A stretch of 37,112 nucleotides of DNA from Patescibacteria group bacterium. GTDB lineage: Bacteria > Patescibacteriota > Microgenomatia > JAADGY01. Within the stretch, counting starts at the first letter, position 1, and each line of letters opens with the position of its first letter. The stretch covers positions 1-37,112 of the forward strand of contig JAJRVN010000035.1 of NCBI GenBank assembly GCA_024277325.1, given 5' to 3'. Below the pieces are notes generated by a model that was given only the letters and a program-made list of their open reading frames with translations, was not told the origin of the DNA and searched no databases. The position numbers were made by a program, and so were the translations under genes. This document shows positions 946-35,577 of the stretch, in pieces.

Positions 946-951
946 TATAAT
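946..951 (+). promoter_or_regulatory. Putative -10 box 8 nt upstream of ATG 960 (leaderless-type start)
   Basis: TATAAT at 946-951; no Shine-Dalgarno before the ATG. Confidence 0.55.
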
Positions 952-959
952 CTATAACT

Positions 960-1814
960 ATGTCGCCTGAAACTCCACAATATTTACCTGAAATAGTGTC
1001 GCTTTTCAAAGGCAGAGCTTGGGTTTTTCCTGATGTTGGCTTTAACTGGCCGAAAGGGGCTGTCTTACCGCCCGGGCCAAGCTTTTGGCGCTTAAATGAG
1101 GCCGAGGTTTTAAGGCTTTTTAACTTGGCTCTAGATTCCGTAGCCGGCCAACAGTTAGGAAGGTGGAAAGAGAATGACATAAGCATTGTGGCCAACGGCC
1201 CGTTTCAAATACTTACCCGCTCTCGATTAGCCAGAGCCGGCTTGGAAATTAATTTCAAGTGGCCAGACCAGCTAGTTGTAAACAACTACAATTCTCAAGC
1301 TTCCTTTGTGGTCCCGCCAAACCAAGCCATAAGTATGGCCAGGCCTGTTTTTGGCTTGCCGATGGTGAAAAGCCGGTTTATTTTAGACATAAGTCACATA
1401 GGTGTTTTAAACGAAGAAGAACGAAAAATAATAAATATTCAGTCATTAATGCCGCCCATAAAGCCCGGTCAGGTTCCTAAATTAGTTTACAATGTTACCT
1501 GGCAAGAAAAAGGTTTCTTCCAAGACCTACCAAAGTCTGGCTTTAGCTTGTGTTTATCAGAGCCGGTCCAAGTGCCGTCGGATGAGGTTTGGCTTATCAA
1601 ACATAGCGTGCCCTATTTTCCCGACGGATATATTCATGTAAACTCGGCTGTTTTGGATCCAGAATCTGATTGTCCAATAACTTTGGAGATATATAGTTTC
1701 AACGAACAGATACCTGAATCTGTTAGCGTTTATAGGTCCAAATACGAAGAAGTAGATCGCCAAATTGAGCTGCCGGTTTTAACCGTTTCACCTCAAAACC
1801 AACTTGATATTTAA
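960..1814 (+). CDS. Divergent dCTP deaminase/dUTPase-fold protein, probably two tandem domains
   Basis: TRSRLARAGL and HVNSAVLDPESDCPITLEIY resemble the Dcd motifs RSSLARLGL and [20 protein letters not shown]; lies directly downstream of nrdJ. Confidence 0.55.
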   Translation: MSPETPQYLPEIVSLFKGRAWVFPDVGFNWPKGAVLPPGPSFWRLNEAEVLRLFNLALDSVAGQQLGRWKENDISIVANGPFQILTRSRLARAGLEINFKWPDQLVVNNYNSQASFVVPPNQAISMARPVFGLPMVKSRFILDISHIGVLNEEERKIINIQSLMPPIKPGQVPKLVYNVTWQEKGFFQDLPKSGFSLCLSEPVQVPSDEVWLIKHSVPYFPDGYIHVNSAVLDPESDCPITLEIYSFNEQIPESVSVYRSKYEEVDRQIELPVLTVSPQNQLDI

Positions 1815-1825
1815 GGTTTTGTTAT

Positions 1826-1834
1826 TGCTATAAT
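1826..1834 (+). promoter_or_regulatory. Extended -10 promoter (TGnTATAAT) 6 nt upstream of ATG 1841
   Basis: TGCTATAAT at 1826-1834. Confidence 0.65.
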
Positions 1835-2969: not shown

Positions 2970-2998
2970 TTGTCTATCCATCTGACTTAGGTTACAAT
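2970..2998 (+). promoter_or_regulatory. Sigma70-type promoter for the VirD4-like gene
   Basis: TTGTCT (2970-2975), 17 bp, TACAAT (2993-2998); ATG follows after 5 nt. Confidence 0.55.
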
Positions 2999-3003
2999 AA
3001 ATC

Positions 3004-5337
3004 ATGTTCCAAGACTTTATCGATACCTTGATTTTAAGAGCAACAACTCTGGCAGTCAGTTTATTTGTTTTGATCTTTTCGTTAGCCGGTCTGGTTTTGG
3101 TTCTGTGGTTGATTTTCTTATGGCTAAAATATCGTAAAAGAGAAGAAAGGTCACTATCAATGGTGACTTTTGAGGTTAAGGTGCCAAAAGACAATGAGAT
3201 TAAAATAGATGCCGCCGACCAGATGTTCGCTTCTTTTTACTCGCTGGCCCACTCAGGTTTGTTGAGCTTTTTAAAACATCCAAGGCATATAACCCTGGAG
3301 ATCGTAGCCACGAAAGAAAATATCGGCTTTTACTTGAGTGTGCCAGAGGAAGACCAGCAACTTATAGAGAAGCAGATATACGGGGCATACCCAGAAGCCC
3401 AGATAGTTACGGTTGAGGACCATAATATCTTCACAAAAGACGGCTATGTGGAGTTCACAGCCTTAAAACTGAAAAAGCCTGAGTTTTGGCCGCTTAAAAC
3501 TTACAAAGAAATGGCCACCGACACAATCGCCCCGCTAACCTCGGCCATGGCTAAAATGGGGGAAGGAGAGGGAGGATTGCTGCAGATTGTTATCACCCCA
3601 GCTTCAGCCAAGTGGCAGAAACGGGGCAAAAGCTGGATAGCCTCAAAAAAGAAAGAAGAGTCAGACCCAAAGCAAGCCAAGTACAACATCGACCCAAAGA
3701 CCTATGAGTTAGTGGAAAATAAATGCTCAAAGCCCGGTTTTGTTACGGATATTAGGCTGGTAGTTGTTTCTCCCCAAAAACAAAGAGCCCAATCGCACTT
3801 AAAGGAAATACTAGCTATTTTTACCCAGTTCAAGTCGGCCTACAATAGCTTAACTACCAAGAACATCTGGCTAAAAAAGATGTTTATGCTTGATGTTATT
3901 TATCGCTACCTGCCATTGCTTGGCTCAAAATTAATCTTGAACACAGAAGAGTTGGCCAGCATTTTTCATTTTCCCAATAAAACCGTCGAGACGCCGTTTA
4001 TCCATTGGCTGATGGCCAAAAGAGCTCCCGCTCCAGCCGAAATACCTTCTTCAGGCTTGTTTTTAGGCTACAATCAGTTTCGTGGCATCAGGCGGCCGAT
4101 TTATATCCAAACACCGGATCGCCAACGGCACATGTATATCATTGGTAAAACCGGGGCCGGTAAATCTCAGTTTTTGCTTGATATGATGCTCCAGGACATT
4201 CGAGACGGTAAAGGTATCTGTTTTATCGACCCCCACGACACCATTGATCTGCTTTTAGAAATGATCCCACCTAATCGGGCCGAGGATGTTATTTACTTTA
4301 ACCCGGCCGACCTTGATCGTCCTTTCGGCTTAAACTTGCTTGAATACAAGACCGAAGACCAGAAGCAGTTTATCGCCTCATCGATTATTAATATGATGTA
4401 TAAATTATTCGATCCCCACAAGACCGGCATCGTTGGTCCTCGTTTTGAACACGCTGTTAGAAATGCCATTTTAACCGTCACGGCTGAGCCGGGGGCTTCA
4501 TTCGTTGAAATTGTCAGAGTTTTAACCGATGACAGCTACTTAAGATATCTATTACCTAAGGTTAAGGATCCGATGGTCAGACGCTACTGGACCGACCAGA
4601 TTGCTAAAACCAGCGAGTTCCATAAGTCTGAGGTTTTAGATTATATTGTTTCCAAATTCGGTCGTTTTGTTACCAACCCGATGATGAGAAATATCATCGG
4701 CCAGTCCAAGAGTTCCTTTGATTTTAGAAAGGCCATGGATGAGGGTAAGATATTATTAATCAATTTGGCCAAGGGCAGAATAGGTGAGGAGAACTCAAGT
4801 TTTTTGGGGCTGGTACTGGTGCCTAGAATTTTGATGGCCGCCATGAGTCGGCAAGACGTTCCCGAAGAGCAAAGACAAGACTTTTATCTTTATGTTGATG
4901 AGTTCCAAAACTTTGCCACACCTGACTTCGCCCAGATATTATCTGAGGCCAGAAAATACCATCTGAGCTTAACCGTCGCCAACCAATTCATCGGCCAGAT
5001 GGATGATGAGGTGAAAAATGCCATATTCGGCAACGTAGGCAGCTTGGTTTCTTTTAGAGTCGGGGTTACCGATGCCAACTACCTCCAACATGAGTTCGCC
5101 CCCACCTTCAACCAGACCGACCTTATCAATATCGAGAAATACAATGCCTATATCAAGACCATAGTCGGCAACCAACCGGTTGACCCTTTCTCTCTGGATT
5201 TAACCAAGGACATGAGCACCCAGGAGAAGATGCGGAATCGGAAAGTGGCTGAGATGATTATCGAACTGTCCCGGCTTAAATATGGCCGGGACCGTTATCA
5301 AATCGAAAGAGAAATAGCTCAAAGAGCCAGGTTATGA
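3004..5337 (+). CDS. VirD4/TraD/TrwB-like coupling ATPase (HerA/FtsK superfamily) with N-terminal membrane anchor
   Basis: N-terminal TM helix; RHMYIIGKTGAGKS (Walker A), FIDPH, LYVDEFQNF (Walker B), LSEARKY, ANQFIGQ, AIFGNVG. Confidence 0.85.
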   Translation: MFQDFIDTLILRATTLAVSLFVLIFSLAGLVLVLWLIFLWLKYRKREERSLSMVTFEVKVPKDNEIKIDAADQMFASFYSLAHSGLLSFLKHPRHITLEIVATKENIGFYLSVPEEDQQLIEKQIYGAYPEAQIVTVEDHNIFTKDGYVEFTALKLKKPEFWPLKTYKEMATDTIAPLTSAMAKMGEGEGGLLQIVITPASAKWQKRGKSWIASKKKEESDPKQAKYNIDPKTYELVENKCSKPGFVTDIRLVVVSPQKQRAQSHLKEILAIFTQFKSAYNSLTTKNIWLKKMFMLDVIYRYLPLLGSKLILNTEELASIFHFPNKTVETPFIHWLMAKRAPAPAEIPSSGLFLGYNQFRGIRRPIYIQTPDRQRHMYIIGKTGAGKSQFLLDMMLQDIRDGKGICFIDPHDTIDLLLEMIPPNRAEDVIYFNPADLDRPFGLNLLEYKTEDQKQFIASSIINMMYKLFDPHKTGIVGPRFEHAVRNAILTVTAEPGASFVEIVRVLTDDSYLRYLLPKVKDPMVRRYWTDQIAKTSEFHKSEVLDYIVSKFGRFVTNPMMRNIIGQSKSSFDFRKAMDEGKILLINLAKGRIGEENSSFLGLVLVPRILMAAMSRQDVPEEQRQDFYLYVDEFQNFATPDFAQILSEARKYHLSLTVANQFIGQMDDEVKNAIFGNVGSLVSFRVGVTDANYLQHEFAPTFNQTDLINIEKYNAYIKTIVGNQPVDPFSLDLTKDMSTQEKMRNRKVAEMIIELSRLKYGRDRYQIEREIAQRARL

Positions 5338-5657: not shown

Positions 5658-5706
5658 AATGAATAATAATAAACCCGCTTACTTATTTTGACAAGCTCTG
5701 GCTTTG

Positions 5707-5780
5707 TGCGCCTGGCAGGACTTGAACCTGCAACCCCCGACTTATAAGATCGGTGCTCTAACCGCTTGAGCTACAGGCGC
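5707..5780 (-). tRNA. tRNA-Ile with anticodon UAU; CCA not encoded
   Basis: Minus strand reads GCGCCTG TA GCTC AAGCGGTTA GAGC A CCGAT CTTATAA GTCGG GGGTT GCAGG TTCAAGT CCTGC CAGGCGC A, a full cloverleaf with anticodon TAT at 5744-5746. Confidence 0.95.
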
Positions 5781-5892: not shown

Positions 5893-7620
5893 TTAATTTT
5901 TCAAATAAACCGCCCGCCAAGGTTTGTAGGCAGAATAGAAGGTTTTTTGATAGATGATCCGGCCGTTTTTTTCAACCGTCCAGTCAAAAGCGGCTTTGGC
6001 ACCCCAAGCGGCCCACTCAATCTGCCGAGTTGTGCCTGGTAGTAGAGAAGGATCGTCTTGGTAGATCGGCGGTGGCGGTGGCGATTGGTCCCAGATACGA
6101 ACCTTGGATAGCTTAACCCTGCGATTGTCCTTAGTGCCGTAAAGCTTAAAGACCAGGTGCATCTTCTTTTTATCAATTTGAGTTTGGATCAAAAGGTATG
6201 AGGCCAGGTCGTTTTTAAACTTAAAATCAGCGTAGGGAGCGTAGACCGTCGCATCAAGACCAACCTGTGATTTTTGTTCATAGTAGCTGACTCGGTAAGA
6301 ATGAGCTCGGCGTTCAATAATCGGCAAGCCGGCGTTTAAAACAGCCCTAAACAAGGTGGTGGAAACTTGGCAAACCCCACCACCATCCCCCAAAATGGTT
6401 TTGCCGTTTTTAATGACGTAAGAAGATTTATAACCGGTCCGGGCCGAGACATCACCTAAATATTTATTGAAAGAAAACACCTCTCCCGGCGCCACCAAAA
6501 CCCCGTTCATCTTGGACGCTGCCAAGGCAATATTATGGACTCGATTGGCGATCGAATGAGCAAACCAAGACTCGCCCTGTCCAACCAGCTCTTTAATACC
6601 GTAATTATTAGAGTCAAGGGTGGTTATGTCAGGCTTGATAACTTGGCCGACAACGTGGATAATGATATCTTCAGCTGGACCCTGGCCATCGGTTGCCCTA
6701 ATAAAAGCTTGTTTGATTTGTTCTTTTAACCTTAAGGTATCAAGTTCAAAGCCGTCTTGCGAAGGCTTGAACAACTTGGCCCGGCCGGCTTCATACTGGA
6801 AAAGGGCATTTTTGGGAGATTGGTTGAAAACTTGCTTTTTGGCTGAGACCATCTCATCAAGAACGTCCTCATCGATTGTTTTATATAAAGAGATGAGGGC
6901 GATTTTTTCTTGGTTGGTGAGGTTGTTTTGTTTTTGGTTGTGTTTAAGGGATATTTGGCTTTTTAACAGTTTGGTGGCCTTGGCCAAGCCGGTCTGAATC
7001 GCTGACTTTGACGGAGTTAAAGATATATATTTTAAAGGGATTGGAATCGGTTTTGGTTGAGGATCGAGAAGATAGGTTTTTATTTTTTTGGCCAAACCGG
7101 CTTCGTCGATAATGTAACCATCCTTGGCCGGTATAAGATGTATATGTTTGACTGGATCATAAGATAGCTTGGCCGGTTGGGGCCGGTGCCAACTACCGCT
7201 GTAGGCGGTTTCAAGCTTGTTAATAATCAAAAGTAGATTAATGTCAAGAACTGGCTTCAGGTTGATGTTGGTGATTAAGCTGCGGTTGTAGATAAGCCAT
7301 CGCTGTCGCCAAGTTTTGGATTGGAAATTTTCAAGGTAAAGGTTAAAAGATTTATCAATCGATTGGTAAAACAAGCCATCGCCGGCCAGAGAAATTGTTT
7401 GTTGGTTGTAATTAAAGGTCAGGTTCTTGGTTGATTTTTTGTCTATAAGCTTGGCCTTTTGGCCGGCCCGGTAAGTGGGCAAAAGGCCAAGGTACACTCC
7501 GTCAAGATAAAACCTGACTGGAGTTATAGTTCCGGAAACAATCAATACGCCGGCAACGGTATAAATAACCATTAAGCCGGTAATGATTCCCAAACAGATA
7601 AACTTTAAACGCCTTGCCAT
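5893..7620 (-). CDS. VanW-family protein with N-terminal membrane anchor and probable peptidoglycan-binding repeats
   Basis: NRVHNI, PGEVFSFN, GGGVCQVSTTLFRA, ERRAHSY, GLDATV, DFKFKND. Confidence 0.9.
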   Translation of the reverse strand: MARRLKFICLGIITGLMVIYTVAGVLIVSGTITPVRFYLDGVYLGLLPTYRAGQKAKLIDKKSTKNLTFNYNQQTISLAGDGLFYQSIDKSFNLYLENFQSKTWRQRWLIYNRSLITNINLKPVLDINLLLIINKLETAYSGSWHRPQPAKLSYDPVKHIHLIPAKDGYIIDEAGLAKKIKTYLLDPQPKPIPIPLKYISLTPSKSAIQTGLAKATKLLKSQISLKHNQKQNNLTNQEKIALISLYKTIDEDVLDEMVSAKKQVFNQSPKNALFQYEAGRAKLFKPSQDGFELDTLRLKEQIKQAFIRATDGQGPAEDIIIHVVGQVIKPDITTLDSNNYGIKELVGQGESWFAHSIANRVHNIALAASKMNGVLVAPGEVFSFNKYLGDVSARTGYKSSYVIKNGKTILGDGGGVCQVSTTLFRAVLNAGLPIIERRAHSYRVSYYEQKSQVGLDATVYAPYADFKFKNDLASYLLIQTQIDKKKMHLVFKLYGTKDNRRVKLSKVRIWDQSPPPPPIYQDDPSLLPGTTRQIEWAAWGAKAAFDWTVEKNGRIIYQKTFYSAYKPWRAVYLKN

Positions 7621-7627
7621 AAGCTTA

Positions 7628-10594
7628 TTATACTGGCTGATTTTTTTTACTTAACCGTGGTAGAACGCCCTTGGGCCAGCAATGAAACTTATACGGACAC
7701 ATTGAGCAGGCTTGCCGATCATCGGCCCGGTCAAATTTAAGGCTTTGAATCTGATGATAAACATCTTTTAATAACAACCTTAGGCTATCTTTTTCTTCTT
7801 GGTTTGGCTGAAACTTAAACAAATAGGGTTTTTGTTGCCGGTTACCGATAAACCATAAAAAGAATGTCAAGCGCTTGTTTTTAAACAAAGGATCATTCTC
7901 AACAAGAAGGGCGTAAAAAGTCAGTTGGCGGTGGTAATCTTGATTGGGGTCGCTTAAGGCTTTAATCGTCGGCCGTCGGCCGGTTTTGTAATCGATAAGG
8001 ATAATTTTATCTTTGCCGGCTGAATCAACTCTATCTATTTTACCCGATAAAGGCACATTATCTGAAGTAAAAATATGTTCTTTAGAATAATCAACCTCAA
8101 CCGCTACAGGCCGGCTTTCATTTAGTTGTTTGACAAGTTGGTTGTCATAAAATCTTTGAAGCAAGATCAAGCCCTCATTAAGAATCCGGCCATGCTCGGT
8201 CTTGGTTAAGATCTCATTATCAAGATAGGCTTGGTAAGCTGTTTTCACCACCCCAAAACCAACATTTGATTTAGATTTTAAGTTAATCGCCCATTCTTCT
8301 AGAGCTTTGTGGATGGCCGAGCCCATGATCAACGAGGCTGTTTTTATTTTTGGCAGTTTGTAAAGATGAGTCAAGAGAAATTTGTAAGGGCACTTGAGGT
8401 AAAGATTAAGCGAGGTCGGCGACAGCTTGATTTTTTTGACAGCTTCTTGCCAATAGTCCGGATTAATAGCCGGCATCTCAGCCGGCTTGAGCAAAGAAAC
8501 CAAAAGCTTTTGGAGTTTGTCAAGATTGTCTTGGTGACTGACGCTGTCGATATATTGGTTTGGCAATTTAGTGATAAAAGACGATATGGTTTTGGGCTTG
8601 ACCACCCCGTCATACCAAACATGCTTTGGCACAGTGATATAGATTTGTTTTTTGGCTCGAGTTAAGGCAACATAAAACAAGCGCTCTTCTTCATAGGCTT
8701 TTTCTTTTTTTTGGTCGACAATATCGGCTTCTAGTAATTGTGGCAGCTTAATTTTTGAGCTTATTCTTTTGCCGCTCCACTTACCCTCAATAAATTGTGG
8801 GATAAAGACATAATCAAATTCCTGGCCCTTAGCTTTATGGGCGGTGGTTAACTTGACCGCTTCGGAGTTGGAAAAAAGCGGTTCAGCCTCCAGCTTAACC
8901 TTGTAATCTTCCAATAACTGCAGGTTGGCAACTAGGTCGTTGGTCGAGGTGACCAGCCTGTCCCGATACCAAGTTTTGACCTGGTTAAAGAAAGCATAGA
9001 TAAACATAATCTGATGCTTATCCTGCTTATTGGCCAAAAGATAGGTGATAAAGCCGGTTTTTTCCATGAGAGTTTGCAATAGCAAGGGCAGAGGCTGTTG
9101 GCCGGCGGTTTTTTTGAGCTCTTCAAAAACATCAAAGACCTGCCAAATCGATCGATATTGGGGATGGGCAGACCGATTAAAATACATCTTAAAAACCGAG
9201 GTTTTCAGACGGTAACCGTCCCTAAAAAGCTGACCGACCAAGGCCGGCGATAGTTTGAAAAACGGCAGATTAAGACACGTAAACAGATCATTCTCGGCTT
9301 GCTGATTGCCCCAGTTATGCAATGTTTTGACCAAGGTCATCAAAAAATTAACTCCCGACTGAGCCATGACATCTATTTGGCCATCGACGACATAAGGAAT
9401 CTTATCTTTGTTGAAAAACGGCGTATAGATATCGGCATCTTTGTTTTCCCGGTAAATCAAAGCGATTTGACTGGCTTTAACCTTGTGCTGTAAAAGCTCT
9501 TTGATAATTTGGCTGATAAACCAAGCTTCTTGGGTAAGCGAGGCAAAATGGTGGACTTGGATTTTTTGGTGTTTAAGTTTGGATTTTTTAGCCGGCCGAA
9601 TGGTTTTGTTGATGGCCAAAAGACTGTCAAGGCTGCGGCGTTGGTCAGCGATGAAGGCCTCACTGGTTGAGATGATCTCAGGTTGGCTTCGATAATTTAT
9701 CTCCAAGTTGATGGTTTTGGTTTTGGTGAATAATTTTTTGAAAAAAATAAAGTTATAGCGTGAAGCGCCCTGGAAACGAAAAATAGACTGGTCATTATCG
9801 CCGACGGCGAAGACATTGGCACTGTCGCCCCAAAAGGACGACAAAAGGCTAATTAGTTTATTTTGGGCTGAGTTGGTGTCTTGGTACTCATCAACTAAAA
9901 GATACAAGACTTTTTCTTGAACCTGCAAAGCCAGCTCCTCATCCTCTGCTATACGGTTAACGGCTTGGTTTATCATGTCCTCGAAATCATACAAACCCTT
10001 GTCCCTCATGATCGATTGGTATAACCGGTAAAACTTAACCACCTCTTCAAGCTTGAGCTTTTGCTTGTCGGTTAAATGGGTGTCTTTTTTAATGTTGGTT
10101 TTAAGCTGTTGAGGTGATAAAGATTCGCGCTTAAGTTGGCTTAAGGTTTGGATTAAAGGTTGGACATAGAAAGTGATATCGCCAAACGGTTTCAACCAGA
10201 AAAATTTATTGTCATTGAGGATCTCTTCAAACAAGCGGACCTTTTCCAAAGTGCTGATCGGCCGGCCGGCCCTGATTTCCGGGAATTTATCGGGATGCTG
10301 CTTAATGATTCGGCCGGCAAAGGCATGAAAAGTTAAGATATTGACTTGGTAGGCTTCGGCACCGATGATCTGGCTTAACCGACTCATCATATTGTCAGCA
10401 GCGGCCTCGGTATAGGTTAGGGCGGTGATAGCGTAGGCCGGTGTATCGGTTTTTGCTAAAATATTGGCGATTCGCAAAGTTAAAACCTGGGTCTTGCCGG
10501 TTCCCGGCCCGGCCAAAACCAAAACCGGCCCTTCAATAGTGTCAACAGCTAACTTTTGGGCTGGATTAAGTTGTTGGTAAAGTTTTTTAAACAT
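7628..10594 (-). CDS. UvrD/PcrA-family SF1 helicase fused to a C-terminal PD-(D/E)xK nuclease with probable Fe-S ligands
   Basis: Helicase: AGPGTGKT, VDEYQDTN, VGDNDQSIFRFQGA, NYRS, TAHKAKGQEF, EERLFYVALTRAK. Nuclease: SPTSL..YLKCP, GKIDRVD, IDYKTG, QLTFY, CSMCPYKFHC. Confidence 0.9.
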   Translation of the reverse strand: MFKKLYQQLNPAQKLAVDTIEGPVLVLAGPGTGKTQVLTLRIANILAKTDTPAYAITALTYTEAAADNMMSRLSQIIGAEAYQVNILTFHAFAGRIIKQHPDKFPEIRAGRPISTLEKVRLFEEILNDNKFFWLKPFGDITFYVQPLIQTLSQLKRESLSPQQLKTNIKKDTHLTDKQKLKLEEVVKFYRLYQSIMRDKGLYDFEDMINQAVNRIAEDEELALQVQEKVLYLLVDEYQDTNSAQNKLISLLSSFWGDSANVFAVGDNDQSIFRFQGASRYNFIFFKKLFTKTKTINLEINYRSQPEIISTSEAFIADQRRSLDSLLAINKTIRPAKKSKLKHQKIQVHHFASLTQEAWFISQIIKELLQHKVKASQIALIYRENKDADIYTPFFNKDKIPYVVDGQIDVMAQSGVNFLMTLVKTLHNWGNQQAENDLFTCLNLPFFKLSPALVGQLFRDGYRLKTSVFKMYFNRSAHPQYRSIWQVFDVFEELKKTAGQQPLPLLLQTLMEKTGFITYLLANKQDKHQIMFIYAFFNQVKTWYRDRLVTSTNDLVANLQLLEDYKVKLEAEPLFSNSEAVKLTTAHKAKGQEFDYVFIPQFIEGKWSGKRISSKIKLPQLLEADIVDQKKEKAYEEERLFYVALTRAKKQIYITVPKHVWYDGVVKPKTISSFITKLPNQYIDSVSHQDNLDKLQKLLVSLLKPAEMPAINPDYWQEAVKKIKLSPTSLNLYLKCPYKFLLTHLYKLPKIKTASLIMGSAIHKALEEWAINLKSKSNVGFGVVKTAYQAYLDNEILTKTEHGRILNEGLILLQRFYDNQLVKQLNESRPVAVEVDYSKEHIFTSDNVPLSGKIDRVDSAGKDKIILIDYKTGRRPTIKALSDPNQDYHRQLTFYALLVENDPLFKNKRLTFFLWFIGNRQQKPYLFKFQPNQEEKDSLRLLLKDVYHQIQSLKFDRADDRQACSMCPYKFHCWPKGVLPRLSKKNQPV

Positions 10595-10599
10595 ACTTT

Positions 10600-10605
10600 A
10601 TTGTA
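10600..10605 (-). promoter_or_regulatory. Putative -10 box 5 nt upstream of the helicase ATG
   Basis: Minus strand TACAAT-aaagt-ATG. Confidence 0.5.
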
Positions 10606-11989: not shown

Positions 11990-11995
11990 GAGATC

Positions 11996-12003: not shown

Positions 12004-12011
12004 ATATGTGT

Positions 12012-24538: not shown

Positions 24539-24612
24539 TTCATTGCTGTTTAAATTTTCCACCTTAAGAGATGGATAGGTTATTGGGATTATGCTAAACT
24601 TAAAGCAGACAG

Positions 24613-26064: not shown

Positions 26065-26149
26065 CCAGGATTTTACCAACCCGGCCTGTTTCTGGCAAAA
26101 TTAAAAAAAACCAATCCTCAATAAGATAAAAGTGGTTTATAATCAAGAT

Positions 26150-27301
26150 ATGCGCAGGCCCAAGTTTTCTTACAGCCAGAGACTACTTAGCTTATTGTCA
26201 CTTTTTAAGAATCTAGCAATTGATTTAAGGCCAATCCCTTTTAATCGAGGATGTCGCTTAGATACTGCCTTGCTATCTTTGGCTTTAGCTATTGATGGCT
26301 TTAAAGTTGACTGCTCGGACTTGGTCAACCCTAATCGTTTTTTAAATAAGCCCAAGATTAGTCGCTTAACAACATCATACCAGCAGGTAATCGATCTTAT
26401 TTTAGCCCAAAATAGACCAAAACCAACAAGCCAAGCCAAACTACTTGATGTGGAAAAAACGATTAAGAAAATTAATCAAATACTATCAAATAATGCTAGT
26501 TATACGATGAATAATAATGGGTATAGAATATCTAAAATTGTGGTCGAGGACGAACTTAATGGGATCGTTGTCTATCAACCGCCGTCGGCCTTTCGATTGC
26601 CGTTTTTGATGTCAGATGTGTTTAAAGTTTCAATAGACAATCAAATGAACTTAGGTTTAAGAGCCGCTTTTTTGTATTATGCGATTCTTTTTTGCCGACC
26701 GTTTGGCCAAGCCAATCAAATGACGGCTTTGTTTGCTACCTGGTGGCTTTTATTGTCAGAATCAAAAAATCACAAGCTACTTGTTAACCTAGGTCGAAAC
26801 TTAACCGATATGGATTTGCAGGCATATAACGCCTTTTTTAAAACAACCCAGTCAGCCAAAGATATCTGGCGCCAAGACTTGACTTTTTGGTTTGAGTTTT
26901 TTCTTCAAGCCATGATAGTTGGATCTGGTAAACCAGACAAAACCTCGGTGCCAGCAACCGTCCAGTCAAAGGCATCGCCGCCGCAACTTATCAGCCGACG
27001 GATAAAAACCAAGCCAACCGCTACCACCAAAAGACCGACTCCGGTCAAACCAAGGTCAAAACCGACAGAAACAACTGCCTTCTTGACGGACCGCCAAATT
27101 AAATTATTGCGCCTGTTTCAAAAAACCAACATGATTAAGATGGCTTATGCCAAATTTATCTTTCCCAATTTATCCGACGACACTCTCTTAAGAGAGCTGC
27201 AACGGCTGCAAAGATATGGCATTATCATTAGAAAAGGCAGGACCAAGGGTTCATACTATGTCTTAGTTGATAAATTTAAGGATATAATCTATGAAATTTA
27301 G
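26150..27301 (+). CDS. Degenerate Fic/Doc-like protein with a Pro/Thr/Lys linker and a C-terminal winged helix
   Basis: GYRISKIVV...VYQPP and CRPFGQANQMTA (compare HPFxxGNGRxxR); LTDRQ...LSDDTLLRELQRL...GRTKGSYY; ATG 26150 is 6 nt after TATAAT. Confidence 0.7.
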   Translation: MRRPKFSYSQRLLSLLSLFKNLAIDLRPIPFNRGCRLDTALLSLALAIDGFKVDCSDLVNPNRFLNKPKISRLTTSYQQVIDLILAQNRPKPTSQAKLLDVEKTIKKINQILSNNASYTMNNNGYRISKIVVEDELNGIVVYQPPSAFRLPFLMSDVFKVSIDNQMNLGLRAAFLYYAILFCRPFGQANQMTALFATWWLLLSESKNHKLLVNLGRNLTDMDLQAYNAFFKTTQSAKDIWRQDLTFWFEFFLQAMIVGSGKPDKTSVPATVQSKASPPQLISRRIKTKPTATTKRPTPVKPRSKPTETTAFLTDRQIKLLRLFQKTNMIKMAYAKFIFPNLSDDTLLRELQRLQRYGIIIRKGRTKGSYYVLVDKFKDIIYEI

Positions 27302-29093
27302 TCGTTTTGCTTTGTACTTGTCTGAGATAGAAGCTATCAGCTCTCGATTGTTGATGACTGAAAAGATCTCTGATTTGTATGCCAAGCTGAAGCCGGATGA
27401 AGCCAAGATAGCCTCTTATCTGTTCTTGGGCAAACTGGCGCCTAATTACAAAGGAGTTGAGTTTAATCTAGCCTTAAAGACGATGATAAAAATAACGGCC
27501 CAAGCTTTTTCCAAGCCGTTGGCCGAAGTCACCGCCGATTACAAGCAGATCGGCGATCTGGGCGATCTGGTTTATCAGTATCGCCTCAGCCAAAAAGGCA
27601 AACCCAGCAACTTGTCCATAACCCAAACATATCAAAAATTATGGGAAATCGCTGAGCAATCAGGCGAAGGCAGTGTCGAGAGAAAGATCTTTTTGATGGT
27701 TAAGCTATTAAGCCAAGCCGGCCCGATTGAGTCAAAATATCTAGTTAGAATCCCACTTGGCCTTATCAGATTGGGTTTTTCCGAGTTGACCTTATTGGAC
27801 GGTTTATCCTGGCTTTTGACCGGAGGCAAAACACTCAGGCCGGTTTTGGAAGCTGGCTTTAATGTGCGTTCTGACATCGGTTTGATTGTCGAGAAAGTGA
27901 TAGAAGCTTACCGGGCCGGTTTGACCACCGAACAAATAACGATGAAGGTCAGCCAGCTGAAAGCCAAGCCTGGCATACCTATTCGGCCGGCTTTAGCTTC
28001 GCGCTTAGCCAGTTTGAATTAGATAATTGACAAATTAGGTTGCCATTTTTTGGAGCCAAAATATGACGGCTTAAGAACTCAGATACATGCTTGGCAAGAT
28101 AACTCGCCAAGCGGGGACCTTTTAAACCTGACCTCTCAAATCAAGGTTAAGATTTTTTCCCGAAACCTGGAGGATATTAGTTTGATGTTTCCTGAAATAA
28201 GCGACTCGGTTAGGCAGTTGATGGCCGCTACCGGGATTAAGGGAGTTATTTTAGATGGCGAGAGCATCGCTTATGATCCAAAAACCAAAGTCTTTTTCCC
28301 CTTCCAAGAAACCATAAAGCGCAAACGCAAACATGCTATTTCGGATACCAGCCGGCGCTTGCCGGTGAAAACTTTTGTTTTTGACATTCTCTTTTACGAT
28401 GGCAGTGACTTAATCAGCCAACCATTGAAGCTTCGCCGGCAAAAGCTTAATGATTTTTTAAACCGGCCGGCCGGCTGTTTAAAACTTACCCCCCAACACA
28501 AGGTTGAATCGGTCAAGCAGATGCTAACTTGGTTTGGAAAATACATAGATGCCAACCTGGAAGGTATCATGTCAAAAAAACCTGATTCGCCTTATCGAGC
28601 CGGTTCGCGGGACTTCAGCTGGGTTAAGTTCAAACCATCGGCCTTCAATTCCATAGAAGACACATTAGACCTTTTGGTTTTAGGCTGGTATCAAGGCAAA
28701 GGCAAACGCAATCAGTTTGGTATAGGTGCTTTTTTGGTTGGAGTCTATGATAAGGCCAACGACCGATACTTAACTGTTTCCAAGATAGGCACTGGCTTGA
28801 CCGATGATCAGTGGCGCGACCTTTACCAAAGGTGCCAAAAATTGCAAACCACAGTTAAGCCAGCCAATTATCAAGTCAGCAAGGACTTGTTTTGTGACTC
28901 TTGGCTCAAGCCGTCTTTAGTGGTCGAGATTAAGGCTGATGAGATAACCAAAAGTCCTTTACATTCATCAAGTTATGCTTTAAGGTTTCCACGCTTGGTT
29001 AAGTTTAGGGATGACAAGGATCCGATTCAAGCTACAAGCCTAACCGAGCTTAAGCAGATTTTTGCCGATAGGTACAAGCGTATAAAAGCCTAA
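27291..29093 (+). CDS. lig: ATP-dependent DNA ligase (archaeal/eukaryal-type with N-terminal DNA-binding domain), interrupted by one in-frame TAG at 28020-28022
   Basis: The two track ORFs share a frame and join to 600 codons: RPALASRLASLN*IIDKLGCHFLEPKYDG, ILDGE, FVFDIL, EGIMSK, WVKFK, LRFPRLVKFRDDK. Confidence 0.9.
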
Positions 29094-29986: not shown

Positions 29987-30296
29987 GAGATGATAATAAT
30001 CTCAGGTAGCCAGCTTTGCCGGCAAAACCAACCATCTGATTAACCACCTGTCCGTCTTTAAACAAAACAACGGTGGGAATGCTCATAATTTGATATTGCT
30101 GGGCGGTTACTTGGTTTTCGTCCACATTTATCTTAGCTATCTTTATTTCCGGTTTTTCTTGGGCCAGTTCTTTTAAGACCGGTTCGGCCAGTCGGCATGG
30201 GGCGCACCATGGAGCAAAAAAGTCAACTAAAACAGGCTGTTGACTGTCCAAAACTTCGGTTTTAAAATTATTGTCATCAACGTTAATTACAGGCAT
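29976..30296 (-). CDS. trxA: Thioredoxin
   Basis: VLVDFFAPWCAPC, INVDEN, IMSIPT; SD TAAGGAGA at 30301-30308. Confidence 0.95.
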   Translation of the reverse strand: MPVINVDDNNFKTEVLDSQQPVLVDFFAPWCAPCRLAEPVLKELAQEKPEIKIAKINVDENQVTAQQYQIMSIPTVVLFKDGQVVNQMVGFAGKAGYLRLLSSLDE

Positions 30297-30486
30297 GTGT
30301 TCTCCTTAAATCTAAGAAATTTTTTAAATCTACCTATTAATTATACACTCATTATTTATGCTTTGGGCCAACTGTTTGGCCGGCTTCATTTTAAAAAATA
30401 AAGTTAAAACCCGAAAGTGAAAACCGGTCATTTTAACTATTCAAAGAACTTGACAACTGTTTATTTATGATGTTTACTGGATATAA

Positions 30487-30813
30487 ATGGTTAATAGTTA
30501 CTTAAAGTATGGGTTTATAATTTTGGGAGTTGTGATTGCTTTTGGCATAATTTACTTAACGGTTATTAATGTCCGTCGAGTTCAAGATCGCCAAGCTTTA
30601 GCCACTAAATTAAGCTGTCAGTATAATTGGTGCAAAGCTCAAATCAACAAAAATGGCAATTTATTTACAATCGAGATCAAATCACCTTTTGTTAAAAAAT
30701 ACACAGCGGTCAGCTTTAATACAAACCTTAACCAACATGTCCACAAAAATGTCCAAGTCAAGGGCGTGGTAAAAAATAAAACTTTCTACGTCGTTGACCT
30801 CAAAGATCTTTAA
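30487..30813 (+). CDS. Small membrane-anchored protein with a beta-rich, possibly OB-fold-like C-terminus
   Basis: N-terminal TM; LNQHVHKNVQVKG...FYVVDLK; TTGACA upstream at 30450-30455. Confidence 0.6.
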   Translation: MVNSYLKYGFIILGVVIAFGIIYLTVINVRRVQDRQALATKLSCQYNWCKAQINKNGNLFTIEIKSPFVKKYTAVSFNTNLNQHVHKNVQVKGVVKNKTFYVVDLKDL

Positions 30814-32087
30814 GAAACGGTTATAACCTCTATTTTACCAACCTGGCTGGGATGACCGGCTTTTTCAAAATTAAGGTAATTGTGGCTTAAACCGTAAAGG
30901 TGTCCTTGGCGGTGTGATTCCCACAAAATCTCAAGTTTGCGGCCAACGAAGGCTTGGCGCCAGTATTGATTCAGGCGCCGGCCGAGATCTCTTAATTTTT
31001 TAGCTCGAAGCTTGATGATTTCTGTGGCTACCGGTTTAAGTTTTAACTTATTCGCTGCCGCCATCGGTCTAGCAGAGTAGGGAAAGACATGGAGCCGACT
31101 GAACTTAACCTTCTCAACAAATTAGACTGTGTCATTAAAGTCTGATTCGGTTTCGCCGGGGAAGCCAACGACTATATCGGTTGAGATGAGAATGTCGGGC
31201 ACCGCCGACCTCAAGCGGGAGATGGTTTGCCGGAACTGTTCTCGGCTGTAACCGCGGTTCATAAGCTTTAATATCTTGTCACTTCCTGATTGAAGACTGA
31301 TATGAAGATGGGGCATAAGCCGTGGGTTATTACGAAACAGATCTATGAATGAGGGAGTGAAAGAAACCGGATTGATTGAGCCAAATCGAATTCTGGAAAC
31401 AACCGTTTTGTCTAAAATAGTCTTGGTTAAATCTTCCAAGCCTTGACTTGAGACTTGGTACCAATTATTTTGCCGGCCGTTGCCGTCTTGGCCGTAAGCG
31501 CTGATATCAACTCCGGTTAAAACCACTTCCTTAACTCCGTCTTTTTCTGCGCGCTTAATCTCGGCTACGACTTGTTGAATCGATTTTGAGGCAGGTTCTG
31601 GTCTGGTATATGGAATGATGCAGTAAGTGCAGTATCGGCGGCAGCCATCTTGTATTTTTATAAACCGCCTGACCCGAGAAATTAACTGTGCGCTATTGAC
31701 CTTGTGGTTGCTTGGCTTTGGTTTTGATAAGGTTTGACCCGGCTTGATTTTAAGAAATTGTAGTGGATGTTGATCTTTGTTGTCGTTGCCATAAATGTAA
31801 TCAATCCCCCAACTTCGCCAGTCAACCGCCTTATCTTTCAGCCAACGTTGGGCCCCACAGCCCCAAGCGACAACAACTGCTTGGGGATAAAGCTTTTTTA
31901 ACCTTCTTAATCTTTGCCGGCTTTCCTTTTCCGCTTTAGCGGTGACGGCGCAGGTGTTGACGATGATCACTTGAGGCTGGTTTTTATCATAGAGGCAGCC
32001 GGCTTGGTTAAAGACGGACTCCAGCGAAGTTAGCTCGGCTTGATTTAATCGGCAACCCAAATTGACAGTCATATATTTAAATGTCAT
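30810..32087 (-). CDS. mtaB: tRNA methylthiotransferase (MtaB-like radical SAM), interrupted by one in-frame TAA at 31122-31124
   Basis: LGCRLNQAE, NTCAVT, KIQDGCRRYCTYC, HLHISLQSGS, DIVVGFPGET; reading through gives DFNDTV*FVEKVKFSRLHVFPYSARPMAAA and joins the 30810-31064 ORF (425 codons in total). Confidence 0.9.
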
Positions 32088-32221
32088 ACATTTTTTGCCA
32101 GTATTTGCTAATGGATACTTAGATTATAGGCTATAAGTGTGTCTTTGATTAAACCGGCCATTAGTCAGCCTTGCCAAAGCGTTTTTACTTGAGTAGATAA
32201 GATAAGGTAAAATACACTCAT

Positions 32222-33133
32222 ATGAAAATCAGCCTTAAAGTTTTGTTGTTAGCTGGATTGATTTTGCCGTTTCTTATATGGGCCAAGTCCGCTTCGGCCC
32301 AAACGCCGATAGCGACAGGTTCCTTTCTAGCCAGTCCGTCAGCCAAGGGATCGGCCAGCGCCAGCGCCAGGGTCAAGGCCAGCAAACAAAAAGAAGATAT
32401 AACTCAGCCAACCAAGCCAAAAAACAAACTGGAGCAGGTCTTGGCTAAACAGGTGATCAGCCAACCAACCTGGCGTAATTTTATCCGTTACCTGGTCCAG
32501 CAATCGGTTAACCACGGAGTGCCCATAAACACATTAGTCTTGATTCTTTTGTTGCCTTTGGCCGGAGCCATCATCGCTACTTTGCGCCACATGATCGGCT
32601 TGCGGGGATTGGGTATTTTCACCCCGACGGTTTTATCCGTCGCTTTCATTTCCACAGGCATTAGCGTCGGCTTGATTATCTTTTCAACCGTGGTGATTAG
32701 CTTAACGCTGGTTCGCTTGGTCTTGAAAAAGATTAAGTTTAGGATGCAATATTTGCCAAGGATGTCTTTAATTATGATTTTTATAACTTTATCCATAATA
32801 TTTCTGTTTTATTTTTTGGCCACCAAAACTCAGATTGATATCTATACCATCTCGATCTTTCCCATCCTTATCATGATGCTTTTGGCTGAGAGCTTTATGG
32901 AGGTTCAGATAGGCCGATCACTTAGAGAAGCTATCTATCTGACCATTCAGACTTTATTGATTGCTTTGTTGGTTTATTGGGTTTTGACCATGGAATGGGT
33001 TCAGGTGTTGATGATTTCTCATACGGAGGCTGTGGTTTTGGCTACGATTTTGTGGGATATTTTTGTCGGCAAGTATGTAGGTTTGAGAGTCTTGGAGTAT
33101 TGGCGGTTTAGGCGATTAGTCAGTTCTCGATAG
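32222..33133 (+). CDS. 7TM protein of the family usually fused to an inactive transglutaminase
   Basis: Signal peptide, Ser/Ala linker, LLLPL..RHMIGLRGLGIFTP, PRMS, FPILI..AESF, GKYVGLRVLEYWRF; precedes the ATP-grasp gene. Confidence 0.8.
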   Translation: MKISLKVLLLAGLILPFLIWAKSASAQTPIATGSFLASPSAKGSASASARVKASKQKEDITQPTKPKNKLEQVLAKQVISQPTWRNFIRYLVQQSVNHGVPINTLVLILLLPLAGAIIATLRHMIGLRGLGIFTPTVLSVAFISTGISVGLIIFSTVVISLTLVRLVLKKIKFRMQYLPRMSLIMIFITLSIIFLFYFLATKTQIDIYTISIFPILIMMLLAESFMEVQIGRSLREAIYLTIQTLLIALLVYWVLTMEWVQVLMISHTEAVVLATILWDIFVGKYVGLRVLEYWRFRRLVSSR

Positions 33134-33142
33134 TTGCAGGTT

Positions 33143-34429
33143 ATGAAGTATAGCCAAATCTTAGGCTTGAATGCCAGAAATCATGTTTTTCAAGCCCATT
33201 ACAATCGCAAGTCGGCCAAGCGGATAGCCAACTCAAAGCTAAATACGAAACAGTTTTTGGCTGCCCATAACTTCCCCCACCCGAAGCTTTTGACTATCTT
33301 TCGCGATTACCGCCAAGTTCTTGATTTTAAATGGGGCGACTTGCCGTCGGCCTTTGTCTTAAAGCCGGATAAAAGTTACGGCGGTGAGGGTATTATTATT
33401 GTCACTAAAGGAGGTAAATATGCCGGCGAATGGTACACCAATAACCACCAACTAAAAAACTCAAAAGACCTTCAGTTGCACACGCTTGATATCCTTGGTG
33501 GGCTTTACTCAACCCATAACATTCCTGATATTGCTTATATAGAAGAGTATGTGCCTATACACCCTGTATTCAGGCGCTATTTAACCAAAGGAACGCCTGA
33601 TGTTGGAGTCGTCGTTTTTCAGAAAGTCCCGGTTATGGCTTTTTTAAGATTGCCGACAGCCGAGTCGGGAGGTAAGGCCAATCTCCACCAAGGCGGTATC
33701 GGCGTCGGAGTGGATCTTGGCACAGGCATAACCACTTATGCTATTTACAGGGATGAATACATAACTTACTATCCCCAGACAAGGTATAAATTAAGGGGTA
33801 TTAAGATTCCGTGGTGGGATGAAACTTTAAAACTGGCGGTTGAGATCCAAGACAAAATAAAGTTGGGCTATATGAGGGTTGATTTTGTCATCCATCCGGA
33901 AAAAGGGCCGATGATTTTGGAGGTTAACTCAAAACCGGGATTGAGCATCCAGTTGGCCAACAGAGCCGGCCTGCGCAAGCGCTTGGAGAGGATTATGGAT
34001 CTTGACATAAGAAATGTTAATCATGGCATTCAAGTGGCTAAATCCCTGTTTGCCAGCTCTCTGATGGATAAAATTCAACAAAGGTACATTGTCCACCCAG
34101 TTGAGGATGTCATGGTCATCGGCAAAAGCAAAAAAATGACGGTCAAAGCTCGTATCGACACAGGTGCTTGGCGGTCATCGATCGATCGCCAGCTGGCCGA
34201 GTCATTAGGATTGCTTGACCCCAGCAACATAATTGGTCGAAATGTTTATCGGAGCGCTTTGGGCCGTCAGGAAAGGTTGTGGATAAAGCTAAAATTTAGT
34301 CTAGCCGGCAAGTATATCAACACGATTGTGTCGGTCGCTGACCGCCAGCAGTTAAGCTATCGCTTGTTAATTGGCCGGCTTGACCTGTCAAAGTATGGTT
34401 TTTTGGTTGATCCTCGGCCCAAAACTTAA
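33143..34429 (+). CDS. Alpha-L-glutamate-ligase-like (RimK-related) ATP-grasp protein fused to a C-terminal retropepsin-like protease
   Basis: ATP-grasp: ILGLNARN, FVLKP..GGEGI, LRLPT..SGGKANLHQGGIG, GPMILEVNSKPGLSIQLANRAGL. Protease: ARIDTGA, SALG..ER, DR..LSYRLLIGR. Confidence 0.85.
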   Translation: MKYSQILGLNARNHVFQAHYNRKSAKRIANSKLNTKQFLAAHNFPHPKLLTIFRDYRQVLDFKWGDLPSAFVLKPDKSYGGEGIIIVTKGGKYAGEWYTNNHQLKNSKDLQLHTLDILGGLYSTHNIPDIAYIEEYVPIHPVFRRYLTKGTPDVGVVVFQKVPVMAFLRLPTAESGGKANLHQGGIGVGVDLGTGITTYAIYRDEYITYYPQTRYKLRGIKIPWWDETLKLAVEIQDKIKLGYMRVDFVIHPEKGPMILEVNSKPGLSIQLANRAGLRKRLERIMDLDIRNVNHGIQVAKSLFASSLMDKIQQRYIVHPVEDVMVIGKSKKMTVKARIDTGAWRSSIDRQLAESLGLLDPSNIIGRNVYRSALGRQERLWIKLKFSLAGKYINTIVSVADRQQLSYRLLIGRLDLSKYGFLVDPRPKT

Positions 34430-34497
34430 AAAATACAAGAAAAACCAACATCCGGCAAATAATTTTAATAGCCATCGTTTAACGTATAATAATTCTT

Positions 34498-35577
34498 ATG
34501 ATGAAGGTGGCGGTTGGTTTGTCCGGAGGAGTTGACTCGGCGGTCGCGGCCTTTGCCTTAAAGCAACAAGGCTATGATGTGGTTGGTATTTATCTGTCAG
34601 CTTGGTGCAATGATCGATCGTTGATTGACCAAGAGATGGCCAACCAAGTGGCCGAGTTTTTAAAGATCAAATTTAAAGTTCTGGACATAAAAAAGGACTA
34701 TGAATCGTATGTCATAGATTATTTTTACCAACAGTATCGCAAGGGCAGAGTGCCATCACCCGATGTTATCTGCAATCGCGATATTAAGTTTGGCTTGTTT
34801 TTGGATTGGGCGATGAAAGCCGGTTTTGACAAAATAGCCACCGGCCACTACGCTAAGTTACAACCAGGCCCGAACCGTCGTTTGGCCGTGTACCGACCAA
34901 AGGACAAAGCCAAAGACCAAACCTATTTTCTCTTTCAGCTAAGTCAATCAAACCTAAACAAAATTATTTGGCCATTGTCAGCCTTAACCAAAAAACAGGT
35001 CAGATTGATTGCTAACGAACATAATTTTCCCAATAAAGACAAACCGGAATCTATGGGTATCTGCTTTATAGGAGAGATTAACTTGGTCGATTTTTTAAAG
35101 CAAAGAATCAGGCCTAAACAAGGTCCGGTGGTGTCCACGGCCGGTCGGGTTGTCGGCGAACATAAAGGGGTTTGGTTTTACAGTTTGGGCCAAAGGCATG
35201 GGTTTAACATAACCAAGCCTGGCTTGTTGCCGCCAAAGGCGTTTGGTCCCAAGGGGTTAAAACCCCTATACGTTATCGGCAAGGAGACTAAAAAGAATAA
35301 GTTGGTGGTTTCAGACAAGTCGGACTGCTTTATTCAACAATTAGAGTTATCTGATGTTACTACCATCTGGCCGGATGAACCGCTAGAGGATAAAACTTTA
35401 TTTGTCAGATTAACCAACCTGGGGCCGTTGTTGGAAGGGAAGATCAAAAAAACTAAAAATTTTCACTTAGTTGCATTAACCAAGCCAACCTTGATCACCT
35501 CGCCCGGCCAACCGGCGGTTTTTTATGATAAAACCGACAGATTGATCGGTGGTGGGATTATAGAAGCGGTCAGTTAA
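34498..35577 (+). CDS. mnmA: tRNA U34 2-thiouridylase
   Basis: GLSGGVDS, PSPDVICNRDIKF, ATGHYA, KDQTYFL, ESMGICF, PGQPAVFY; TATAAT 7 nt upstream. Confidence 0.96.
   Translation: MMKVAVGLSGGVDSAVAAFALKQQGYDVVGIYLSAWCNDRSLIDQEMANQVAEFLKIKFKVLDIKKDYESYVIDYFYQQYRKGRVPSPDVICNRDIKFGLFLDWAMKAGFDKIATGHYAKLQPGPNRRLAVYRPKDKAKDQTYFLFQLSQSNLNKIIWPLSALTKKQVRLIANEHNFPNKDKPESMGICFIGEINLVDFLKQRIRPKQGPVVSTAGRVVGEHKGVWFYSLGQRHGFNITKPGLLPPKAFGPKGLKPLYVIGKETKKNKLVVSDKSDCFIQQLELSDVTTIWPDEPLEDKTLFVRLTNLGPLLEGKIKKTKNFHLVALTKPTLITSPGQPAVFYDKTDRLIGGGIIEAVS

Follow-up and report, generated by a model that had tools for sequence, protein, structure and literature searches.

Introduction

Promoters that abut start codons have been described from several lineages. 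In the GeneMarkS-2 classification (PMC6028130), the bacteria of group C, including Mycobacterium tuberculosis, Streptomyces, Corynebacterium and Deinococcus-Thermus, carry a -10 motif ~6-8 nt upstream of the start codons of operon-first genes, with 25-50% of operons concerned; according to the passages on this group, its members are chiefly from Actinobacteria, with 773 of 859 genomes, and from Deinococcus-Thermus, with 37 of 38. For Deinococcus deserti, 167 of 262 mapped genes are given as leaderless (de Groot et al. 2014, as cited in PMC6028130). A comparable layout is described here for contig JAJRVN010000035.1 of assembly GCA_024277325.1, a 37,112-nt stretch of DNA (the window, taken at its full length) from a Patescibacteria group bacterium, where TATAAT-like hexamers stand a few nucleotides before the ATG of many genes; in this genome, ordinary sigma-70-type promoters very probably abut the coding sequence, with transcription starting on the ATG and the mRNAs being leaderless.

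In group C, Shine-Dalgarno (SD) type sites serve other genes. In the present genome, the modal distance between hexamer and start codon is 6 nt, ~39% of divergent genes are involved and the anti-SD sequence is intact. In motif, spacing, share of genes and restriction to AUG the genome agrees with the group as the consulted parts of PMC6028130 describe it, and in its use of SD sites only partly. It differs from group C organisms, which are mostly high-G+C, in its 42% G+C and 0.8 Mb, and in the low use of SD sites by its remaining genes (~21% of tightly linked internal genes). Deinococcus deserti shares the -10-like motif abutting the open reading frame (ORF) and the large leaderless share; the leaderless genes of archaea (group D) share a promoter at a fixed short distance, the lack of an SD site and an AUG at the 5′ end, although the archaeal box lies ~26 nt upstream and is read by TBP/TFB, whereas the box described here is a bacterial -10 element 6 nt upstream, in a genome with a sigma-70 factor (PMC6028130, passages on group D). 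Group C organisms have the support of differential RNA sequencing (dRNA-seq), and D. deserti that of RNA and proteogenomic data, whereas the present layout is described from sequence statistics; a search for RNA sequencing runs matching 16400-26399 of the window returned none.

Patescibacteria, also called the candidate phyla radiation (CPR), do not figure among the group C taxa in the passages and supplements of PMC6028130 that were searched (supplement file 1 lay outside the search), and no published description of leaderless genes in Patescibacteria, CPR bacteria or Saccharibacteria was found in the literature searched; an RNA sequencing paper on TM7x (PubMed 35975994) is named in PMC12641261, in the sections consulted, as one of its sources of transcription start sites (TSSs). 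The mechanism is familiar from mycobacteria and Deinococcus, and Patescibacteria would be a new lineage for it.

Spacing between hexamer and start codon

The window is the whole of contig C21 of the assembly (hereafter G000), which comprises 823,871 bp in 70 contigs with a G+C content of 41.9%, an estimated completeness of ~94% and an estimated contamination of 0.5%. Distances were counted around every TATAAT on both strands (695 copies), gene calls not being used, with the ATGs at each distance split by whether they open an ORF of at least 100 codons; 'gap' denotes the number of nucleotides between the end of the hexamer and the start codon. ATGs of long ORFs occur 14, 39, 10, 14 and 9 times at gaps 5, 6, 7, 8 and 9, respectively, and 0-7 times (about 2) at all other gaps from 0 to 30, while ATGs of short ORFs are distributed flatly at 3-16 per gap. 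For the relaxed motif TAnAAT (2797 copies), 69 are found at gap 6, compared with 2-15 outside gaps 5-9. Spacing controls point the same way, TATAAT-N6-ATG occurring 43 times in the genome, the reversed pattern 6 times and TATAAT-N12-ATG 5 times. Within the window, TATAAT-N{5,8}-ATG is found 9 times, compared with 1.41 ± 1.33 in 100 dinucleotide-preserving shuffles, none of which reaches 9; eight of these matches head long ORFs, and the ninth is antisense inside sufB. A positional peak above the A+T-rich background, which the earlier note on this DNA had suggested looking for, is therefore present both genome-wide (39 against about 2 at gap 6) and in the window.

A gene-centred count was made on 807 genes, 766 of them off contig edges, called from codon-usage log-odds over the 3′ 60% of each ORF, and hexamers were accepted with at least 5/6 matches to TATAAT, A2 and T6 fixed, at gaps 5-9. 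Such a hexamer precedes 12.2% of 714 first ATGs at gap 6, and 4.8, 4.8, 3.8 and 4.6% at gaps 5, 7, 8 and 9; before 2213 internal in-frame ATGs, a further control, the frequency is 0-0.8% per gap. The signal is present at 234 of 5858 candidate starts and at 33 of 7738 in-gene decoy starts. A candidate is found for 224 of 766 genes (gaps 5-9: 37, 93, 38, 27 and 29), with ~25 expected by chance; the excess over decoys is ~202 of 766 (26%). The geometry of this layout and its specificity are direct observations.

The excess over decoys depends on gene arrangement, amounting to 39% of divergent genes, 33% of genes at least 60 nt past a co-oriented gene, 32% of those 20-59 nt past one and 9% of those less than 20 nt past one. 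The earlier note had proposed leaderless starts for most operon-first genes; this holds in the window, where 12 of 21 genes that are divergent or at least 25 nt past the previous gene carry the layout, and fails genome-wide (~39% of divergent genes, 33% at 60 nt or more), the window thus being richer than the genome average.

Identity of the hexamer and position of the transcription start

Leaderless initiation requires AUG, and bacterial start sites prefer a pyrimidine at -1 and a purine at +1. In a codon-resolved count, ATG occurs 103 times at gap 6 and 56 times at gap 7, with 4-45 at other gaps, and in G000 no gap peak was found for GTG, TTG, CTG, ATT, ATC, ATA, AAG or ACG; a peak confined to ATG is what the first of these requirements predicts. 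A pyrimidine stands at -1 in 92% of sites with gap 5 and 91% of those with gap 6 (G at only 2-3%), the corresponding figures being 51% for internal ATGs and 43% for ATG triplets overall. TSS maps of 49 bacteria place the start, centred, 7 bp after the -10 element, which corresponds to gap 6 (PMC12641261, sections on TSS position).

Hexamers with at least 5/6 matches lie 7-26 nt upstream of 37 of 48 tRNA genes, compared with 10.5% of random positions, and exact TATAAT lies in the same interval at 19 of 48, compared with 0.9%. Among 224 aligned sites, the extended -10 (TGn) positions carry T in 43% and G in 41% (background 29% and 21%), an enrichment and not a rule; the sequence is T-rich further upstream and the discriminator A-rich. 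The primary sigma factor is encoded as a 302-aa ORF with Sigma70_r1_2, r2, r3 and r4 domains. SD sites were scored as core 4-mers in defined contexts (decoy rate 4.4%), replacing a 5-mer classification that gave hardly any excess (239 of 5858 candidate starts, 229 of 7738 decoys), and a core is present at 1 of 224 promoter-adjacent starts. By these marks, the hexamer is part of a promoter rather than a site for ribosomes.

As an alternative, the hexamer could be an A/U-rich, non-SD ribosome-binding or enhancer element in longer leaders, of the group B style and dependent on bS1, with no promoter present and the mRNAs leadered. Such a role would agree with the placement of the motif where a ribosome-binding site would be, with the four-domain bS1 that the genome encodes, with the overall rarity of SD sites and with the roughly half of genes that lack a recognisable signal, for which some non-SD mechanism must exist. 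It is nevertheless very improbable, since the hexamer precedes untranslated tRNA genes as well, the sites have the marks of promoters in their invariant A2 and T6, their TGn enrichment (two bases upstream, G in 41%) and their pyrimidine at -1, and a ribosome-binding site would not favour ATG over GTG or TTG. Tightly linked internal genes also have the motif ~4-fold less often than divergent genes (9% against 39%), whereas group B motifs precede first and internal genes alike (PMC6028130, passages on group B).

Conservation of the layout and choice of start codon

Only three of the compared species genomes are relatives of G000 at family level (G001, G002 and G003), in a class of many families with genomes of 0.7-1.8 Mb; the closest relatives of mnmA, a gene of the window, are from metagenome-assembled genomes labelled Microgenomates group, Candidatus Chisholmbacteria and Candidatus Paceibacterota, from which G000 is probably of the Microgenomates type. 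G002, from another genus of the family, was compared by protein matching (80 contigs, 535 kb), and the layout was scored as conserved when a hexamer with at least 5/6 matches stood 5-9 nt before an ATG no more than 8 codons from the aligned start; contig-edge genes, genes whose alignment started after residue 12, genes less than 40 nt from the end of a G002 contig and second-best hits to one target were left out of the counts. The layout was found at 67 of 96 G002 orthologs (70%) of genes that carry it and at 20 of 200 (10%) of other genes, an odds ratio of 20.8, the 96 pairs having a median protein identity of 61%. Upstream of the hexamer, base identity between the two genomes is only 22-50%, so that the DNA around the conserved layout has otherwise diverged. 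Conservation is in this sense observed, and the layout is kept by selection while the adjoining DNA diverges.

Individual genes illustrate this conservation and its limits. The coupling-protein gene has gap 5 in all four family genomes, with TACAAT in G000, TATAAT in G002 and TAAAAT in G001 and G003. For the PEGA/SH3 protein gene, the alignment with the G002 ortholog begins at residue 1, behind TATAAT-7-ATG in that genome, and G012 has TATAAT-6-ATG. The mnmA orthologs vary, TATAAT preceding the ATG by 8 nt in G004, by 9 nt in G036 and by 6 nt in a Chisholmbacteria record.

The promoter-adjacent start is also the start of the longest ORF in 168 of 224 genes and lies downstream of it in 56 of 224, which renders plausible the corrections to ORF starts that had been proposed earlier for several genes of the window, the start at 20808 (PEGA/SH3) being supported by the G002 ortholog aligned from residue 1. 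Ten genes have more than one candidate start, and the loss exceeds 40 codons in 8 of the 56 shortened genes, so some start assignments are wrong. The boxes could also be real promoters with translation starting at a downstream codon, the adjoining ATG being coincidental within a short untranslated leader. The ten ambiguous genes and eight long losses would accord with this reading, as would purA, where ~39 residues precede the Pfam domain. Only a slim chance is given to it, however: the enrichment concerns ATGs heading ORFs of 100 codons or more, short-ORF ATGs being flat; three quarters of the starts (168 of 224) coincide with that of the longest ORF; and Pfam domains begin at residues 2-9 in mnmA and the helicase-nuclease. 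In a second pass over G002 (68 pairs, 38 with the same gap), the ATG stands at the same residue behind its own box in 40, with 9 + 4 more no more than one codon off.

Next to no credence attaches to an artefact of A+T-rich intergenic composition and biased start picking (the TAA in TATAAT, with rules that take the first ATG past a stop). In its favour, the G+C content is 42% and this TAA shares the frame of the ATG when the gap is 5 or 8, but the TAA was rejected as the source of the peak because it is out of frame at gap 6, where the peak lies, the motif-centred count is free of any start-picking rule, the dinucleotide shuffles, reversed pattern, N12 control and in-gene decoys fail to reproduce the peak, and orthologs retain the layout despite diverged flanks. 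Each of these rivals conflicts with at least two of the tests.

Proposed mechanism

Leaderless transcription from promoters abutting the coding sequence would proceed as follows. The sigma-70 holoenzyme is predicted to recognise a promoter that is dominated by the -10 element, has an A-rich discriminator and a weak TGn extension, and lacks a consensus -35. Polymerase would open the TATAAT-like hexamer and start 6-8 nt downstream, mostly at 7, which is the A of the ATG; with the start on this A, the mRNA would begin with 5′-AUG, or carry a leader of 1-3 nt at gaps 8-9, and would have no SD site. By analogy with Actinobacteria and Deinococcus, the 5′-terminal AUG may be bound directly by the ribosome and initiator tRNA. 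This route would serve about a quarter of all genes and ~40% of unit-heading genes, while operon-downstream genes and some leadered genes (dnaK, trxA, hpf and bS1) would use SD pairing with the intact anti-SD, roughly half of genes having neither signal. The proposal in the earlier note that the -10 boxes put the start of transcription on or next to the ATG is supported by the spacing peak, ATG specificity, the pyrimidine at -1, tRNA promoters, conservation in orthologs and the intact anti-SD. Where the transcripts begin and how ribosomes load onto them is inferred, and 'leaderless' is used in that sense.

Several points weigh against this account. The gene set comes from a crude codon-usage caller and is no validated annotation. 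Among the 224 sites, 56 have gaps of 8-9, at which transcription may begin 1-3 nt ahead of the ATG, leaving part of the set near-leaderless; sites with gap 8 have A at -2 in 59%, which suggests a 2-nt leader for part of this subset. A box is also found at 31 of 238 genes less than 20 nt past a co-oriented gene, within the upstream gene, where the boxes of such tightly packed genes are either internal promoters or noise, and clear false positives occur, for example the window candidates at 13495 and 9976. The layout turns over, 29 of 96 G002 orthologs being without it; orthologs of the helicase-nuclease lack the box in G001 and G003 (G002 has TATACT-6-ATG), and the mnmA ortholog is SD-led in G002. 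In addition, the 224 aligned promoters show no -35 consensus (TTGACA ~17 bp upstream) and no information content there, so that they appear dominated by the -10 element.

Near this position, a faint T-T was noted at -23/-22 from the start of the hexamer (T 40-43%), with 50% identity between G000 and G002 at both columns, and several single promoters carry TTGAC in this region, which suggests a weak -35 in a subset of promoters.

Distribution across the phylum

Counts across the phylum rest on one exact hexamer in relatives that are not independent. Summed over 40 relatives from the class, TATAAT-N6-ATG occurs 1314 times, the reversed pattern 341 times and the N12 control 423 times; the N6 count is at least twice both controls in 31 of 40 and less than 1.5 times one control in 7 of 40. 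In a 400-kb sample of G020, from another family and with 48% G+C, 42 matches fall at gap 6 and 28 at gap 7, compared with ~8 elsewhere, TTG showing no peak and GTG a small bump at most. The 143 genomes surveyed from the phylum's other classes give summed counts of 2955 against 1443, with 40 genomes at 3-fold or more and at least 15 hits, and 46 below 1.5-fold. To judge from these counts, the trait is widespread across the phylum yet patchy. Whether leaderless initiation is a selectively maintained, lineage-wide trait in much of Patescibacteria, and not a quirk of G000, is an even call, partly supported by the 31 of 40 class relatives and 40 of 143 other-class genomes with an excess.

Shine-Dalgarno use and the remaining genes

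The 16S rRNA ends in GGATCACCTCCTTTC at its 3′ end, and inspection of its anti-SD, which the earlier note had called for, found CCTCC intact. SD 4-mers peak 4-9 nt before first starts, and cores are present at 60 of 290 tightly linked internal genes (~21%; decoy rate 4.4%) and, among the first three candidate starts, at 64 of 252 unit-first genes without the promoter layout (29 expected). Roughly half of all genes have neither an SD site nor an adjoining promoter. The two-tier initiation strategy proposed earlier is therefore right in that SD sites are retained for other genes, and too simple in that the cores found account for only part of the remainder.

The bS1 gene (contig C50, 1396-2532) encodes 378 aa with four S1 domains and has TATAAT ~35 nt upstream and the SD site AAAGGAGG; with this leader and SD site, a core translation gene would use the leadered SD route. 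Four-domain bS1 is typical of CPR, and the anti-SD has been lost in part of Parcubacteria, according to the parts of PMC9297842 consulted, in which 'leader' is not a word used.

Insertions in 16S rRNA genes are common in CPR. The 16S rRNA gene of G000 (contig C16, 3077-4761) is 1685 nt long and the model has 1533 positions, hence it contains insertions.

Sites in the window

The gene content of the window, typical for a Patescibacteria (CPR) genome, includes ribonucleotide reductase, a type IV coupling-protein-like ATPase, a UvrD/PD-(D/E)XK helicase-nuclease, hrcA-grpE-dnaK-dnaJ, sufCBD, purA, a Fic protein, an ATP-dependent DNA ligase, trxA, mnmA and a glycoside hydrolase. Candidate promoter-adjacent starts are as follows.

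946-962, forward: TATAAT (946-951), gap 8, ATG 960; gene for a 284-aa hypothetical protein
1826-1843, forward: TGcTATAAT, an extended -10 (hexamer 1829-1834), gap 6, ATG 1841; gene for a 123-aa hypothetical protein
2993-3006, forward: TACAAT, gap 5, ATG 3004; type IV coupling-protein-like ATPase gene
7618-7632, reverse: TATAAT (7627-7632), gap 6, ATG 7620; VanW-domain gene, absent from the earlier list of sites
10592-10605, reverse: TACAAT, gap 5, ATG 10594; UvrD/PD-(D/E)XK helicase-nuclease gene
11987-12001, reverse: TATAAT (11996-12001), gap 6, ATG 11989; PAP2 phosphatase gene
11998-12014, forward: TATAAT (11998-12003), gap 8, ATG 12012; DUF5678 gene
16489-16508, reverse: TGtTAACAT, a weak -10 (4/6), gap 8, ATG 16491; EamA transporter gene, under the genome-wide threshold
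20796-20810, forward: TATAAT, gap 6, ATG 20808; PEGA/SH3 protein gene, longest ORF from 20790
21799-21815, forward: TAGATT, weak (4/6), gap 8, ATG 21813; sufC, under the genome-wide threshold
26138-26152, forward: TATAAT, gap 6, ATG 26150; Fic-domain gene, longest ORF from GTG 26132
32208-32224, forward: TAAAAT, gap 8, ATG 32222; 7TM protein gene
34485-34500, forward: TATAAT, gap 7, ATG 34498; mnmA

The contrasting sites with an SD sequence are the following.

12994-13006, forward: SD AGGAGG, 4 nt before ATG 13004; HPF/YfiA-like gene (weak match, TIGR00741, E 8.7e-4)
17939-17954, forward: SD AAAGGAGG, 5 nt before ATG 17952; dnaK, operon-internal
30294-30345, reverse: TATAAT (30340-30345) 43 nt before the ATG and SD AAGGAG 5 nt before it; trxA
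35642-35654, forward: SD AAGAGGTGG, ATG 35652; glycoside hydrolase gene, longest ORF from TTG 35607

All 12 sites named in the earlier note are present with the gaps it had given, and 7 of them (exact TATAAT, gap 5-8) were recovered independently in the shuffle test; its statement that these sites lack an SD sequence holds as well, no SD core being found at any, in line with the 1 of 224 genome-wide. The clear SD sites that it had assigned to dnaK, the hpf-like gene, trxA and the glycoside hydrolase gene were likewise found, and trxA reads as a leadered, SD-dependent gene. With the hexamer threshold lowered to 4/6, no excess above the decoy rate was found genome-wide, so the weak sites at 16491 and 21813 are individually unsupported by statistics. 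The start of the PAP2 gene at ATG 11989 shortens its longest ORF, which begins with TTG at 12112.

The VanW hexamer (7627-7632, reverse) sits within the 3′ end of the upstream helicase-nuclease gene and is either an internal promoter or a chance match. A TATCAT-6-ATG before the hypothetical gene hyp196 (29983, reverse) likewise has its box inside the 3′ end of the upstream gene, and boxes placed in this way (VanW, hyp196) may be internal promoters.

Bidirectional bacterial promoters can arise from the near-symmetry of the -10 element. The ATGs of the PAP2 (reverse) and DUF5678 (forward) genes are only 22 bp apart and their opposite-strand TATAATs (11996-12003) overlap by 4 bp; as in bidirectional promoters, these boxes face divergent genes, and unlike in those, both transcripts are predicted to be leaderless, with 22 bp between the ATGs. 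The segment 11987-12014 would thus be a bidirectional, doubly leaderless promoter, at which two polymerases should exclude each other. Genome-wide, the layout occurs on both sides of 20 of 110 divergent pairs, and only 2 are equally tight, the other being on contig C10 (17 bp).

Upstream of hrcA (16665-16695), an exact TTAGCACTC is followed by a degenerate partner 9 nt further on, a pair that resembles the controlling inverted repeat of chaperone expression (CIRCE), the operator of HrcA regulons; hrcA would on this account be a leadered, regulated exception among unit-first genes. In the purA ORF (24613-26064), ~39 residues precede the Pfam adenylosuccinate synthetase domain and neither an SD site nor an adjoining -10 element is present, so that its true start is uncertain.

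Two further genes appear interrupted. The ATP-dependent DNA ligase (27291-29093) consists of two same-frame ORFs split by one in-frame stop (28020-28022) just before the EPKYDGLR adenylation motif, which would fit a pseudogene, a split gene or an error in the sequence. A MiaB/MtaB-like radical-SAM methylthiotransferase (30810-32087, reverse) appears split into a UPF0004 and radical-SAM part (31122-32087) and an 84-aa piece (30810-31064, reverse), in another frame or ORF, that matches the family's C-terminal end. At 5706-5780 (reverse) lies a tRNA-Ile whose anticodon is TAT (UAU), with TAAAAT 14 nt upstream; a UAU tRNA for AUA is uncommon among bacteria, most of which use a modified CAT tRNA.

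Implications

For this genome, and probably for many CPR genomes, gene starts should follow the promoter-adjacent ATG, by which 56 of 224 genes are shortened relative to the longest ORF, and promoters readable straight from sequence offer a transcription-unit map for an uncultured organism. A large class of genes with neither an SD site nor an adjoining promoter is exposed at the same time. Frequent leaderless expression would be extended to a huge, poorly understood phylum with reduced ribosomes, which is of moderate interest for the evolution of translation initiation, the mechanism itself being well established elsewhere.

If leaderless initiation is indeed a lineage-wide trait, the phylum would join Actinomycetota and Deinococcota as a third large clade of bacteria with a quarter to 40% of transcription units starting on AUG; SD pairing would be a minority mechanism in Patescibacteria even where the anti-SD is kept, and CPR start codons assigned by SD-centred tools would be systematically misplaced. 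The phylum would then also provide a compact, deep-branching test case for leaderless initiation as an ancestral mode and for the dispensability of 5′ leaders under genome streamlining.

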